Positions 23,543 to 28,562 of a DNA stretch of 32,000 bases are shown one piece after another. The first letter of the stretch is position 1, and each line of letters starts with the position of its first letter. This DNA is from Pseudoalteromonas tetraodonis. GTDB lineage: Bacteria > Pseudomonadota > Gammaproteobacteria > Enterobacterales > Alteromonadaceae. Where the stretch lies: positions 1,470,001-1,502,000 of the forward strand of contig NZ_CP011041.1 in NCBI RefSeq assembly GCF_002310835.1, written 5' to 3'. The position numbers and the translations under genes are program-made. A model generated the notes under the pieces. It ran no database searches, had not been told where the DNA came from, and saw only the letters and a list, made by a program, of their open reading frames with translations.

Positions 23543-23588
23543 AGTACTACCTGTAAGCTGTCAGTTTTTAGCTGTAAGCTTTAATAAA

Positions 23589-23624
23589 GAAAGCCGCTGT
23601 TTGTAATGAACAGTGGCTTTTTTG
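23589..23624 (+). terminator. rho-independent terminator of serS
   Basis: AAGCCGCTGTT-tgtaatg-AACAGTGGCTT followed by TTTT. It marks the end of the conserved block. Confidence 0.75.
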
Positions 23625-23783
23625 TGGGTAAAAGGTTAAAGGCGAAAGTAAAAGTCTAAGTTACGCTATTTGTCACTAAAAATAGTAAACCTGCCTCTAT
23701 TGTTTATTTGCACAACACTTTTTGTCTGATATTACTGATCTCCACCATTTTGGTGTGTTGCGCCATTTATAAACCATGAGTGA

Positions 23784-23895
23784 AGCTAACTAATTGTTTA
23801 CAGGTATTTATTTGAGGGCTAAGATAAATGCATTGTAATATATGGACATTTGTCGTTTTATAAACCGACAAATGTCGTAGACAAAATTGTTAGGC
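23784..23895 (+). other. attC-like recombination site (left, hybrid)
   Basis: AGCTAAC (23784-23790) is followed by arm TAATTGTTTAC. The complementary arm GTAGACAAAATT is followed by GTTAGGC (23889-23895). The central part can form two hairpins (GTATTTAT/ATAAATGC and a perfect 11-bp inverted repeat at 23845-23876). Confidence 0.5.
23812..23841 (+). promoter_or_regulatory. possible sigma70 promoter upstream of the two-gene unit
   Basis: TTGAGG-N18-TAATAT. The predicted transcription start falls at the first arm of the 11-bp inverted repeat. This is a weak call by eye only. Confidence 0.3.
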
Positions 23896-23922
23896 AACCC
23901 TGAAGAACAACCTGAGGAATAA

Positions 23923-24423
23923 ATGGAAAGTATATTATCAATACTAGGATCGGTTGCATCTATCGGGGCTGCGATATGGGCTTTTATCGAAGCTGGTAAG
24001 GCCGCTGATTCTGCGTCTCAGGCAGTACAAGTTAGAGACGAGATGATCGATCGTAGACGTTTAGTTGAAGTTTCAAAAGTTCATGCGCAAACAGATAGAA
24101 TTTTATCCGTCGTATCTAAGATAGGGCCGTCATGTAATATCAAAAAGCTAAAAGGCGTCGACTTTCATGGTATTGCAAAGGAAGTGGAAGAGTACGCAAG
24201 GTTTCTTAATGAGCAAAGCTCAAATTTCTCCGAACTCTTTGTAAATAAAGCTAGTTCTCTGTGTGGTGAGCTAAATGAGGATATTGAAGCATTATCAGAT
24301 GCATCTGACCCCGAATCTATTAAAGAAGTTGGGAAGAGGATTTACTACAAGATTAATAGCTTCATGCCCTTTGTCAAAGATCTCGCTGACGAGCGTCAGG
24401 AACGTCCTGTCTCAGCTAAATAA
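23923..24423 (+). CDS. hypothetical membrane-anchored helical protein (166 aa)
   Basis: GAGGA Shine-Dalgarno sequence 4 nt upstream. One N-terminal hydrophobic helix (ILSILGSVASIGAAIWAFI) is followed by a charged, helix-prone region. I recognise no family. Confidence 0.7.
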   Translation: MESILSILGSVASIGAAIWAFIEAGKAADSASQAVQVRDEMIDRRRLVEVSKVHAQTDRILSVVSKIGPSCNIKKLKGVDFHGIAKEVEEYARFLNEQSSNFSELFVNKASSLCGELNEDIEALSDASDPESIKEVGKRIYYKINSFMPFVKDLADERQERPVSAK

Positions 24424-24436
24424 AATGGAAGGTAAT

Positions 24437-24997
24437 ATGAAAATATCAGATGGTGAAAAACTAATACTCCTGATGCTGAGTGAACTGTATGAGAATCTTG
24501 AAATAGACGGTGAAATTGAACCGAAATTTATCCAGTCCGCAATATTCAGTAATAACTTATGGGCAATACCTTGGAAATATTCTGGGATACCTTTTGAGGA
24601 TCAAGATGATCCAGAAATTGTTAAAGAGGTTCTTGATATATTGGATATGTGGAGCTTTATTGAGCATAGTTATAAGCAGTTGTCGGACGGAGAAAAAGTA
24701 CAATTAGAAGAGGCGGCAAAACCGTTTGGAAAAGACCCTAAGTTTCCTGGGTTTGATGGAAATAATGAATCTTCCTATATGGGAATTGCATCTTTTATTG
24801 TTAATGATTTAGAGCGATTCGAAGAATTCAAAGGTAGAAATTTCAATTCTCATTGTCCATCTTTAGATGGGCACGGGAGAATGCTTTCCGTTTTCGAAGA
24901 GATTCGAAAAAATATGAACTTTGGCCCATTATCTGTTGATGACCTATGCCGCATTCTTAAAGAGCGTATTCATCCAAGTAACAGAGAAAATGCCTAA
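24437..24997 (+). CDS. YfbU-family (UPF0304) protein
   Basis: Colinear with E. coli YfbU: KLILLMLSELYENL vs QRLILSNQYKMM; VLDILDMWSFIEHSY vs IIDIMEMYHALHVSW; PGFDGNNESSYMGIASFIV vs LGFDAATEARYLGYVRFMV. GGAAGG lies 4 nt upstream of the ATG at 24437. I take the 24275 start in the ORF track as a spurious extension. Confidence 0.8.
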   Translation: MKISDGEKLILLMLSELYENLEIDGEIEPKFIQSAIFSNNLWAIPWKYSGIPFEDQDDPEIVKEVLDILDMWSFIEHSYKQLSDGEKVQLEEAAKPFGKDPKFPGFDGNNESSYMGIASFIVNDLERFEEFKGRNFNSHCPSLDGHGRMLSVFEEIRKNMNFGPLSVDDLCRILKERIHPSNRENA

Positions 24998-25069
24998 CAA
25001 GGCCAGCCAGAGGGATGCCAAAACCGCCGCTTCGCTCTGGTTTTGTCACCCCTGCTGGTGGCGTTAGCT
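24992..25069 (+). other. attC-like recombination site (right), 78 bp
   Basis: R'' GCCTAAC contains the YfbU stop codon. The imperfect arms GCCAGCCAGAGGGATGCCAAAACC / GGTTTTGTCACCCCTGCTGGTGGC have bulged bases around a 13-nt loop. R' is GTTAGCT (25063-25069). Confidence 0.55.
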
Positions 25070-25150
25070 CTCGAAGGATTGTTGAAGTGTTGAAGTTTTT
25101 TTTACTAGTGTTCGTTCTGGCAGCAAAAAAACCAAAGGGGTCAAATCTTG

Positions 25151-25224
25151 ACTTCTGACTTCAGAACTTAAATTTCTCAAAGCGGCTTGATTTAAGCCGT
25201 TATTTTTCTCTAAAAGCGCAGCGT
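25151..25224 (+). repeat. copy A of a roughly 70-bp repeat (ACTTC..TCAGAACTTAAAT..ATTTAAGCCG..CAGCGT)
   Basis: It aligns with 25783-25852. It contains the stem CTTAAAT/ATTTAAG and the hairpin CGGCTT-gattt-AAGCCG followed by a T-rich tract. Confidence 0.6.
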
Positions 25225-25406
25225 TTCCTATCCTCTTTGTGAATAAATCTCTTCATTAAAAAGCACTCAGATAACAACTTAACAGTTAGTTATGTTCTAA
25301 CTATTTGTTAAATAGTAAATTATCTTTGGATTTTGTTTCTTTATAATTTATTCTACGTACCTCATTGGCGGGTTAATAAGTTGGGGTCATATGCCAAAGG
25401 ATATTT

Positions 25407-25733: not shown

Positions 25734-25782
25734 TGATTTATCTAAAGATTATTTGGTTGAAGACCAAAATGAGCAAATATTA

Positions 25783-25852
25783 ACTTCATATATCAGAACT
25801 TAAATCTTATTGCGACTTATTTAAGCCGCTCTTTGCATATTATACACAGCGT
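25783..25852 (+). repeat. copy B of the roughly 70-bp repeat
   Basis: It shares an exact TCAGAACTTAAAT 13-mer, ATTTAAGCCG and CAGCGT with copy A, at roughly 70% identity overall. Confidence 0.6.
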
Positions 25853-25889
25853 GATAAGTCGGGTTGTCTCAAGTAAATTTATCATTTTT

Positions 25890-25965
25890 GTCGGATGGCG
25901 TGGCTTCGCCACTTATCCGACCTACGTCTAAAGGTAGGTTGGTTAAGCCGAAGGCGCCACCCAAC
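25890..25965. repeat. REP doublet (REPIN-like)
   Basis: GTCGGATGGCGTGGCTTCGCCACTTATCCGACCTAC, an 8-nt spacer, then the inverted partner GTAGGTTGGTTAAGCCGAAGGCGCCACCCAAC. Each unit is a palindrome flanked by GTAG/CTAC and resembles the E. coli REP form G.CGGATG....CTTATCCG.CCTAC. Confidence 0.6.
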
Positions 25966-26353: not shown

Positions 26354-27534
<1,181 letters not shown>

Positions 27535-27578
27535 TTTTTCACCCAAATTTGTATGCTTATTAGCATAACATTTCTTTC

Positions 27579-28562
27579 TTAATGGGTGACCAAAATCACT
27601 GTACCACTACATATAGCTTGAGATAAGTCATTTACGAGTATTTTTATTTGTTTATCTTGCTCTGAGCATAGCTTTTTTATGGTACTAAAATCATCAGCAA
27701 GTTGACTTTTTAGAGTGTTTAAAGCTTGTTGGCGAATGTTGGCTTTTTCTAATTGTTGTTCAATAAATTCTATCCGGCTTTCTATAATGGTAAGCAAAAT
27801 AGCGAAGTTATCTCGAAGGCGACCGAGTAAACCTTCATCCTTTGTATTTATTCCTTTTACAAGCATTGAACAAGAAGGCGCGTTAAATAATAAATTAGAG
27901 CTAAATGGAACTATTCGCTTGGCTCTTCTGCCTAGTTCTAGAATTTCTTTTTCCAAGTCAGAAATAGTTTGTTTTGGGAATTGGTGATATTGGTTTGCTA
28001 CCCTAAACTCTACGCAACAGCTGGCGCCTGCATTAGTAAAATAGCGCTGTACGTTAGCAAATAATGTGTCTAAATCCGTTACCTCAAGATTGTCAGTAAA
28101 AAATGTGACTAATTCTCCAAGTTCGCTTGCTTGTTGCATTGATGTAAAAGCGGTAGATGAAGCGACTTCGAACATTTCTTTTAGATTATTTCGCTCTGTA
28201 ATGCGCAGTTCTACACGCTTTAATTTTTCGTTAAGTTCCTTAAAATCTACTGGCTTGGCAATATAATCATCACCGCCATAGCCATAAGCTGTGAGTTTGT
28301 CTTCACTCGATGTTAAGGCTGAAATAAATATAATTTCACAGTCGTCATACGCACCACATTCTTTTATTTCTTTAACCAAGTCGTAACCCGTGAAATCATT
28401 ACTAAGTAAGATATCCATTAGGACTACTTGAGGCTGATGTTCCTCCATTAAAGCTAATATAGGCTCGCTGCCATCAGATGAGGTAATGTCATGTTGCTTG
28501 GATAGGACCATTTCCATGATATTTCTATTTTGAGGGTTATCATCGACGGACAATATTTTCAC
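27579..28562 (-). pseudogene. response regulator (REC domain plus uncharacterised C-terminal domain), truncated by the IS
   Basis: The REC motifs are present: DD at residues 7-8, the phospho-acceptor D in VVLMDILL, ISALT and IAKP. The native sequence ends at 27612, and the last 11 codons ([10 protein letters not shown]) are read from the IS end. Confidence 0.85.

Follow-up and report, generated by a model that had tools for sequence, protein, structure and literature searches.

Comparative analysis of a 32,000-nucleotide (nt) stretch of Pseudoalteromonas tetraodonis DNA (NZ_CP011041.1, positions 1,470,001 to 1,502,000; hereafter the window, with positions counted from its first letter) revealed two adjacent open reading frames, ORF1 and ORF2, that constitute one integron cassette with a canonical attC site and G|TT boundaries on both sides. 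ORF1 encodes a membrane-anchored helical protein without a known family, and ORF2 encodes a protein of the YfbU family. Across genomes and metagenomes, the pairing of ORF1 with YfbU is near-obligate, and the two proteins co-diverge. The cassette lies between serS and yggL, at a site that is occupied in sister strains by other cargo, including recognised defence genes. We propose, at about even confidence, that the pair forms a compact phage-defence module with two components that would act by abortive infection. This reading is weighed below against three other explanations.

Conserved pairing of ORF1 with YfbU-family genes

A survey of one genome per species yielded 29 loci with an ORF1 relative. 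A YfbU gene was directly downstream in 26 of them, one locus lay at a contig end, and the remaining two had another partner. Metagenome contigs contained 74 such loci: YfbU was directly downstream in 56, six were without YfbU, and 12 were not evaluable. Calculated over evaluable loci, the pairing rates are therefore 26/28 for genomes and 56/62 for metagenomes. The preliminary description of this locus had presented the two genes as a candidate system that stood or fell with the conservation of their pairing; the pairing is conserved, with a rate of about 90% over loci from Gamma-, Beta-, Zeta-, and Deltaproteobacteria, and it holds within integrons as well as outside them.

The spacers between ORF1 and YfbU in the genome loci are 9-21 nt or 1 nt long, or the genes overlap by 4 nt, an arrangement that fits co-translation of the two genes. 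The pairwise distances of ORF1 and ORF2 proteins are correlated over 28 pairs (Mantel r=0.81, a value reached in 0 of 5000 permutations). Proteins at least 90% identical to those of the window were found in Pseudoalteromonas, Vibrio, Alteromonas, Marinomonas, Shewanella, and Corallincola, with more than 100 contigs from V. parahaemolyticus. Since such copies span at least six genera, recent horizontal transfer is indicated. An IncFII plasmid of Raoultella also carries the pair, with an ORF1 protein 25% identical and an ORF2 protein 56% identical to those of the window. Outside integrons, the pair was observed in Psychrobacter, Aeromonas, Vibrio cyclitrophicus, Alcanivorax, Vreelandella, and Photobacterium.

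The loci that lack YfbU have a pattern of their own. In five of the six metagenome loci and in both exceptional genome loci, a gene for a 140-amino-acid (aa) protein stands immediately upstream of ORF1, so that an ORF1 relative without either partner was found in only one of the 62 evaluable metagenome loci. The gene for the 140-aa protein is located 3-12 nt upstream of ORF1 (comparison loci L018, 500-922; L022, 265-687; and L081, L082, L095, L103-L105, and L116) and accompanies about 10% of the ORF1-family genes. This conserved protein has no match in Pfam or PHROG and no detectable relationship to YfbU. We considered that it might be a cryptic YfbU; hhalign probabilities of 1.7% and 4.9% and a short common motif do not show such a relationship. 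The ORF1 membrane family seems to have the 140-aa protein as its other partner.

Structure of the gene pair and boundaries of the cassette

ORF1 (23923..24423, plus strand) encodes 166 aa and is preceded by the Shine-Dalgarno sequence GAGGAA (23914-23919, plus strand). ORF2 (24437..24997, plus strand) encodes 186 aa. The spacer between them is exactly 13 nt long (24424-24436) and contains the Shine-Dalgarno sequence of ORF2, GGAAGG (24427..24432, plus strand), both read directly from the sequence and both as given in the preliminary description. Alternative frames exist for ORF2, namely a 240-aa frame at 24275-24997 and an in-frame ATG at 24425. Since its homologues uniformly begin with MK[IL][ST]DGEK, the start is probably at 24437. 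Public records annotate ORF2 inconsistently, as a 240-aa protein (24275-24997) overlapping the 3' end of ORF1 (ATD02969.1), as a 190-aa protein, or as a 186-aa protein (RefSeq). The numbering of serS as ATD02968, of the 240-aa protein as ATD02969, and of yggL as ATD02970 suggests that ORF1 was left unannotated in the first of these records.

Both ORFs are genuine genes under strong purifying selection. In comparison with the Marinomonas and Alteromonas copies, which differ by 7% at the nucleotide level, the ratio of nonsynonymous to synonymous substitution rates (dN/dS) is 0.02 for ORF1 and 0.06-0.08 for ORF2. Rfam and tRNA scans of the window detected no RNA genes.

The cassette extends over 23890..25063 on the plus strand (about 1,174 nt). 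At its 5' end, the core site GTTAGGC (23889..23895, plus strand) contains the crossover G|TT that sets the boundary, so that the cassette begins at 23890. At its 3' end, the attC site occupies 24992..25069 on the minus strand, with R'' GCCTAAC (consensus RYYYAAC) at 24992-24998, overlapping the stop codon of ORF2, and R' GTTAGCT at 25063-25069; the last letters of R', which are contributed by the sequence downstream, deviate from the consensus GTTRRRY. The attC is an imperfect 27-nt inverted repeat (I2). Folded as DNA, its bottom strand forms a single bulged hairpin of -21.5 kcal/mol (z=-4.2), and its top strand reaches -17.4.

The same boundaries were obtained by comparison. Loci of Marinomonas rhodophyticola and Alteromonas genovensis are 93% identical to the window at the nucleotide level, and this identity is confined to 23888/9-25065/6, with the right limit at the GTT (25063-25065) that closes the imperfect palindrome. 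In many unrelated genomes, the same layout recurs: the ORF2 stop codon lies within GCCTAAC, followed by a hairpin and GTTRRRY, and GTTAGGC stands about 30 nt 5' of ORF1. A GTTRRRY site about 30 nt upstream of ORF1 is found in most of the related loci. The attC calls rest solely on sites of the CTAAC...GTTAG type and on these comparative boundaries. A strict finder based on regular expressions and folding missed the site in the window, whose R' is GTTAGCT, and a less stringent one produced numerous spurious sites within coding sequence. A candidate upstream attC at 23786-23893 was rejected: by comparison with sister strain L054 (CP076084.1) it is attI sequence, and its fold is branched rather than a single hairpin.

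The attI site and the variable slot between serS and yggL

The region directly upstream of the cassette (23720..23892, plus strand) is an attI region. These 173 nt (23720-23892) are 95% identical to the interval between intI and the first cassette in L054, and the identity ends at ...AAAATTGTTA. The integrase of L054 is a 321-aa protein encoded on the opposite strand just past serS; it is 44% identical to IntI1 over the full length (E=8e-92) and has the domains Phage_int_SAM_4 and Phage_integrase. No integron integrase was found in the window, where 23648-23720 stands in place of the approximately 1.15 kb that hold intI in L054. Because the attI matches that of L054 at 95%, IntI is encoded at the homologous L054 position, and 23648-23720 replaces its approximately 1.15 kb, we read the locus as a small chromosomal integron from which intI appears to have been deleted, with attI kept and the two-gene cassette in the first, attI-proximal position.

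The statement of the preliminary description that the two genes appear to travel together as one mobile unit is borne out by homology running from G|TT to attC and by a genuine attI whose integrase is present in a sister strain. Its placement of the pair at an accessory location also proved correct. When the SerS protein of the window was sought in other assemblies, the serS-yggL interval turned out to be a variable slot among strains with identical SerS. In L047-L049 the slot contains a 531-aa fused PARIS AriAB (PADLOC, E=2.6e-201). The cargo of L054 is a DUF2971 protein matching the candidate system PDC-S31 (E=9.5e-18); DUF2971 is also the domain of the lactococcal system Aristaios (PMC11381338). 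L051 carries a 312-aa protein that is weakly SIR2-like (E about 1e-4), and the small proteins in L050, L052, and L053 have no matches. Recognised defence genes or defence candidates hence make up at least two of the seven cargo types in the slot.

Among the serS-yggL places compared (window 23543-25406; loci L047-L054), intI is retained in only one of eight, and the cassette is usually single. With intI kept in one place of eight and the cargo varied, it seems that cassettes are exchanged at attI even where the local integrase is missing. The locus agrees with sedentary chromosomal integron cassettes in its canonical attC, its boundaries at G|TT, its apparently promoterless leader, its position at attI, and the IntI of the sister strain. 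It differs from sedentary chromosomal integrons in that it is tiny, usually with one slot, and in that this and most sampled strains lack the integrase.

The leader from the cassette boundary to the start codon of ORF1 is only 33 nt long, and the nearest promoter-like site lies in attI, outside the cassette. It is a sigma-70-like sequence, TTTACA-17-TAAGAT (23797..23825, plus strand), directed into the cassette and identical in the attI of L054; it came from a consensus scan that overall was not above chance for the region. It is a candidate Pc, and because of the short leader, expression of the cassette presumably depends on it. Between this site and the crossover, a near-perfect palindrome of 16+16 nt (I7; 23845..23876, 94% complementary) is kept at 90-100% in sister strains and is a possible binding site of IntI or a regulator. 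A LexA-box-like sequence, CTGTATATATAGACAG, lies directly upstream of the intI start in L054 (7521-7570 of that locus), in a stretch that appears to have been lost with intI in the window. It suggests that the L054 integrase may be under SOS control, as in other integrons.

To the right of the cassette, a strain-variable stretch of about 60 nt (25064-25125) has a short motif, TGTTGAAG...GTTTTT, in common with the corresponding stretch of L054, and may be a relic of an older cassette or of an array end. The right flank, which begins at about 25125, is conserved at 79-94% in sister strains and includes an intrinsic-terminator-like hairpin (25181..25201, plus strand) found by a terminator scan. 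A 46-nt direct repeat, 76% identical between its copies, stands on both sides of yggL (25128-25173 and 25760-25805), with a GC-rich hairpin after either copy; the conserved right flank of the slot begins with the first of the two.

The YfbU-family protein ORF2

ORF2 matches the Pfam YfbU family PF03887 with 75.8 bits (cut-off 25; E=5e-21) over profile positions 1-164 of 166, which confirms the YfbU likeness noted in the preliminary description. Its sequence finds the structures of E. coli YfbU, 4lr3 and 1wpb (E about 1e-5). The AlphaFold2 (AF2) model of ORF2 is of moderate quality (pLDDT 74), and its only meaningful Foldseek match is 4lr3_A (probability 1.0, TM 0.46-0.52). ORF2 is a YfbU-family protein with the two-domain all-helical fold of E. 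coli YfbU.

Within this family, ORF2 belongs to a proteobacterial subfamily whose members reside on mobile elements, namely plasmids, prophages, and cassettes, rather than in the core genome. ORF2 is 40-56% identical to plasmid and P2-like prophage copies, 26-28% identical to lactococcal YfbU proteins, and 24% identical to E. coli YfbU. The motifs GFDGN.E and LNSH.P are common to ORF2 and the lactococcal YfbU proteins. It also matches phrog_6084 (E=3e-42). E. coli YfbU (UPF0304; 1WPB, 4LR3) has the family and fold of ORF2, whereas members of the ORF2 subfamily carry an additional segment ahead of the GFDGNNE motif.

The function of YfbU had been described beforehand as still unknown. This is out of date for one member: Kamadhenu, a 180-aa protein consisting only of a YfbU domain and encoded on lactococcal plasmids, is a validated single gene for phage resistance of the abortive-infection type (PMC11381338). 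All phage escape mutants selected against it alter G22 of a Sak-like single-strand annealing protein (SSAP) (PMC12184496). The other functional lead comes from E. coli, where yfbU was reported to be necessary for MazF-linked death following DNA damage (PMC2646832).

Kamadhenu resembles ORF2 in that PF03887 covers the whole protein, in its similar size, and in its location on mobile DNA, and a lactococcal proxy shares GFDGN.E and LNSH.P with ORF2. It differs from the pair in being a single gene of Gram-positive hosts, whereas here YfbU is paired with the membrane protein in about 90% of the loci. The closeness was gauged through this stand-in for Kamadhenu: ORF2 is 26% identical to the YfbU of plasmid pUCCL629C, which comes from the same strain collection and has a frameshifted record. 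That gene (L056, 4001-4542) has 180 codons, the length of Kamadhenu, and is annotated as two overlapping fragments through the frameshift, which reflects either a pseudogene or a sequencing error.

The preliminary description had raised the question of whether YfbU homologues recurrently follow a single-pass membrane protein. They do so behind ORF1 relatives, in about 90% of the evaluable loci; for accessory YfbU proteins at large, the membrane partner is not universal, as solo, FRG-partnered, and ribbon-helix-helix-fused relatives exist. The Yersinia P2-like prophage vB_YenM_324 encodes a solo YfbU, gp36 (L042, 5974-6552), 55% identical to ORF2, among small cargo genes at its right end, and no ORF1 relative was found in that phage. 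We did not assign this site to a named P2 defence hotspot, since the published hotspot, gpA-gpQ, is another position; our claim is limited to prophage-end cargo. On the pBB1 megaplasmid of Cupriavidus necator (L032, 3001-4301), the stop codon of a YfbU gene of the ORF2 subfamily overlaps the start of a gene with an FRG domain. Plasmid pXcaw58 of Xanthomonas citri (L031, 3836-4558) encodes a fusion of an N-terminal ribbon-helix-helix domain to YfbU, adjoining a RelE/ParE gene.

The membrane-anchored protein ORF1

ORF1 comprises an N-terminal transmembrane helix and a helical bundle that is predicted to be cytoplasmic. Its sole hydrophobic helix is formed by residues 4-22 (nt 23932-23988; mean Kyte-Doolittle 2.1), and a hydrophobic window of at least 1.6 near the N-terminus, at about position 5, is present in 102 of 119 full-length representatives of the family, so that the anchor named in the preliminary description is a family trait. 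The N-terminus has no basic residues, and a K/R-rich sequence directly follows the helix. By the positive-inside rule, this favours a putative N-out, C-in anchor over a signal peptide that is cleaved off. The invariant or near-invariant positions of the helix (S6, G9, S10, A12, S13, A17, A20) are small residues that recur every 3-4 residues. Such conservation goes beyond what a passive anchor would need and suggests specific helix-helix packing.

The AF2 model of ORF1 (pLDDT 83) consists of a long N-terminal helix followed by a four-helix bundle. As stated beforehand, ORF1 has no recognised family: it gave no match in Pfam, PADLOC, or PHROG. Foldseek searches against the PDB and a viral structure library returned generic helical bundles only (E >= 0.04), and a profile search against PDB sequences yielded nothing meaningful. 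A Foldseek comparison of both models had been recommended; it placed ORF2 with 4lr3 and left ORF1 among these generic bundles. An exhaustive profile search of 1.84 billion representatives assembled an ORF1 family of 259 clusters at E<=1e-3, nearly all of 160-175 aa and none with domain fusions. The possibility that ORF1 is not a conserved gene, raised in the preliminary description, is set aside by these 259 clusters together with the dN/dS of 0.02.

The PADLOC matches to AbiTi and CARF that arose in the ORF1 searches were weak and inconsistent and were taken as chance. The first approximately 60 residues in five of 23 members of the ORF1 family matched Saf_2TM or SLATT_1, with best scores of 14-16 bits versus cut-offs of 26-30. 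The likeness to the SLATT/Saf_2TM proteins of CBASS-like conflict systems concerns their second transmembrane helix and the helix that follows. ORF1 differs from them in having one hydrophobic helix, not two, and no nucleotide-signalling partner, and all the matches are below the curated thresholds.

In E. coli (L034, 2295-3327), a gene for a small membrane protein, yfbV, annotated as a terminus macrodomain insulation protein, is followed by yfbU on the same strand, as ORF1 is followed by ORF2. This is a core chromosomal locus, unlike the cassette, and YfbV is unrelated to ORF1: in an hhalign comparison of the ORF1 family with E. coli YfbV, the probability of homology was 0.1%.

A proposed two-component phage-defence module

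Several observations lead us to the defence reading: (i) the same attI holds PARIS AriAB and the DUF2971/PDC-S31 protein in strains with identical SerS, (ii) the YfbU-domain protein Kamadhenu is a validated abortive-infection system, and E. coli yfbU has been linked to MazF-dependent death after DNA damage (PMC2646832), (iii) some neighbourhoods of the pair resemble defence islands, a 55%-identical YfbU is prophage-end cargo, and ORF2 matches phrog_6084, and (iv) the partners are swapped modularly. The swapping of partners by both ORF1 and YfbU fits the shuffling of sensors and effectors that is typical of abortive-infection systems, and it also fits a shuffling of toxins and antitoxins. As background, 18% of the tested V. 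cholerae integron cassettes of unknown function conferred phage resistance, including Sucellos, a two-gene system similar to RexAB (10.1101/2024.07.02.601686).

The defence-like neighbourhoods include DndB, SLFN_AlbA_2, and SNIPE in V. cyclitrophicus, GmrSD_N and putAbiC in Photobacterium, and TIR proteins in Alcanivorax. A pool of 147 neighbours included TIR proteins, one protein of the type IIG restriction-modification/DrmMI-like kind, PD-Lambda-4_B, and a number of PDC and HEC candidates, along with transposases, integrases, and genes of ordinary metabolism. Scanned with Pfam and PADLOC, this pool provides family counts and no enrichment figure. Because the cassettes of an array are independent of each other, the alternative cargo at the same attI outweighs the neighbourhoods.

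In the proposed mechanism, the YfbU-family protein ORF2 would be the conserved core and would detect a cue of infection, candidates for which are a phage recombination or single-stranded DNA-annealing protein or the DNA damage that it causes. ORF1, as a single-pass partner in the inner membrane, would oligomerise and convert the signal to membrane damage or growth arrest; alternatively, it might keep YfbU inactive at the membrane until the module is triggered. Transcription would start at the Pc-like promoter on the attI side, outside the cassette, and both genes would be co-translated. In this scheme we infer the defence function, the assignment of sensor and effector, the trigger, and the promoter. 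The logic would be that of RexAB of phage lambda and of Sucellos of Vibrio cholerae, in which a soluble sensor acts with a co-encoded membrane-anchored partner, and Sucellos is likewise packaged as a two-gene integron cassette. This is an analogy of mechanism and not family membership, as no similarity of sequence or fold was found and RexB has several transmembrane helices versus one in ORF1.

A number of points weigh against phage defence. Neither ORF1 nor ORF2 has a match in PADLOC, ORF1 is without precedent, and Kamadhenu acts as a single gene. At approximately 26% identity, ORF2 is about as distant from the lactococcal proxy as from the core YfbU of E. coli, whose role may be unrelated to phages. 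The resemblance of ORF1 to SLATT/Saf_2TM, being below threshold, is a lead and not a classification. The pair has housekeeping neighbourhoods in Aeromonas, between metabolic operons, and in Psychrobacter, and since array neighbours are independent cassettes, association with them is weak evidence.

Alternative explanations

The same observations bear on other explanations, of which the rather unlikely one of a non-defence accessory function has the E. coli gene order on its side. The pair might then be a membrane-associated module for stress, DNA damage, or chromosome handling, loosely like the core yfbV-yfbU locus and environmentally useful, which would agree with the many contexts unrelated to defence and with the lack of a phage phenotype for most of the tested integron cassettes (10.1101/2024.07.02.601686). 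Opposed to this are the absence of homology between ORF1 and YfbV, the sporadic occurrence of the cassette and its recent movement among at least six genera, the presence of PARIS and PDC-S31 in the same slot of sister strains, and the restriction of the ORF2 subfamily to plasmids, prophages, and cassettes rather than core genomes. A mere co-capture of two functionally independent genes in one cassette is very improbable. It would account for the accessory YfbU relatives that stand alone or with other partners and for the ORF1 relatives that pair with the 140-aa protein; it does not account for a pairing of about 90% over four proteobacterial classes and down to 25% ORF1 identity, for spacing fixed at 9-21 nt or overlapping, for the co-divergence, or for the single partnerless ORF1 relative among the 62 evaluable metagenome loci.

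A toxin-antitoxin or addiction role for the pair is likewise unlikely in our view. In such a module, a toxic protein, for example ORF1 at the membrane or YfbU in the role of a 'death' factor, would be neutralised by its partner, and the benefit would lie in stabilising the cassette or its carrier rather than in stopping phages. The boundary between such modules and abortive infection is soft, and the two overlap. Small, tightly coupled, co-directional, and co-diverging genes are compatible with this explanation, as are the plasmid-borne copies, the commonness of toxin-antitoxin cassettes in chromosomal integrons (10.1101/2024.07.02.601686), and the action of E. coli yfbU as a 'death gene' (PMC2646832). 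The ribbon-helix-helix-YfbU fusion beside RelE/ParE in Xanthomonas citri has an architecture typical of autoregulated antitoxins, but ribbon-helix-helix is confined to that fusion variant, and a DNA-binding domain is present in neither ORF1 nor ORF2. Moreover, Pfam and PADLOC detect no toxin or antitoxin domain in either protein, both proteins exceed the typical size of type II partners, the 33 nt before the ORF1 start appear to leave no room for an autoregulated promoter of the pair's own, and solo YfbU copies exist without a partner.

A broader form of the defence proposal strikes us as quite unlikely: a widespread, hitherto unrecognised two-component abortive-infection system in which an oligomeric YfbU, sensing recombination proteins or lesions, would gate a glycine-zipper-like single-pass ORF1 and thereby collapse the membrane potential. 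ORF1 would then be portable, the 140-aa protein would be an alternative sensor, and the core yfbV-yfbU locus with the 'death protein' role of YfbU would be a domesticated form.

Other features of the window

The upstream remainder of the window is core genome, with icd, clpS-clpA, aat, acnB, trxB, lrp, ftsK, lolA, rarA, crcB, and serS. Downstream of yggL, an AT-rich spacer contains a REP-type GC-rich palindromic element (25885-25965; gtcggatggcgtggcttcgccacttatccgac...). An IS3-family element, composed of an HTH_Tnp_1 ORF and an rve ORF (26354-27546, minus strand), adjoins a response-regulator gene at 27579-28562. The response regulator is 327 aa long here versus 370-372 aa in sister strains, and the IS3-family insertion may have truncated the 3' end of its gene.

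Implications for the YfbU family and for cassette exchange

The kind of system proposed here is already known, because one YfbU protein has been validated as antiphage and integron cassettes are established carriers of defence. What is new is the near-obligate, unannotated family of membrane partners, the 140-aa protein as the other partner of this family, and the one-slot integron beside serS. The locus is a clean one-slot chromosomal integron that serves as a swap site for defence cargo, and it is relevant to the exchange of cassettes in nature. YfbU proteins are widespread and have solved structures, and their functional leads are confined to lactococcal abortive infection and the cell-death phenotype of E. 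coli; the conserved membrane partner offers a tractable entry to their function. If the pair is defensive, it would add a compact system of 1.2 kb and a new family of membrane proteins to the catalogue of defence, and it would extend immunity of the Kamadhenu type to marine Gram-negative bacteria, including Vibrio parahaemolyticus.

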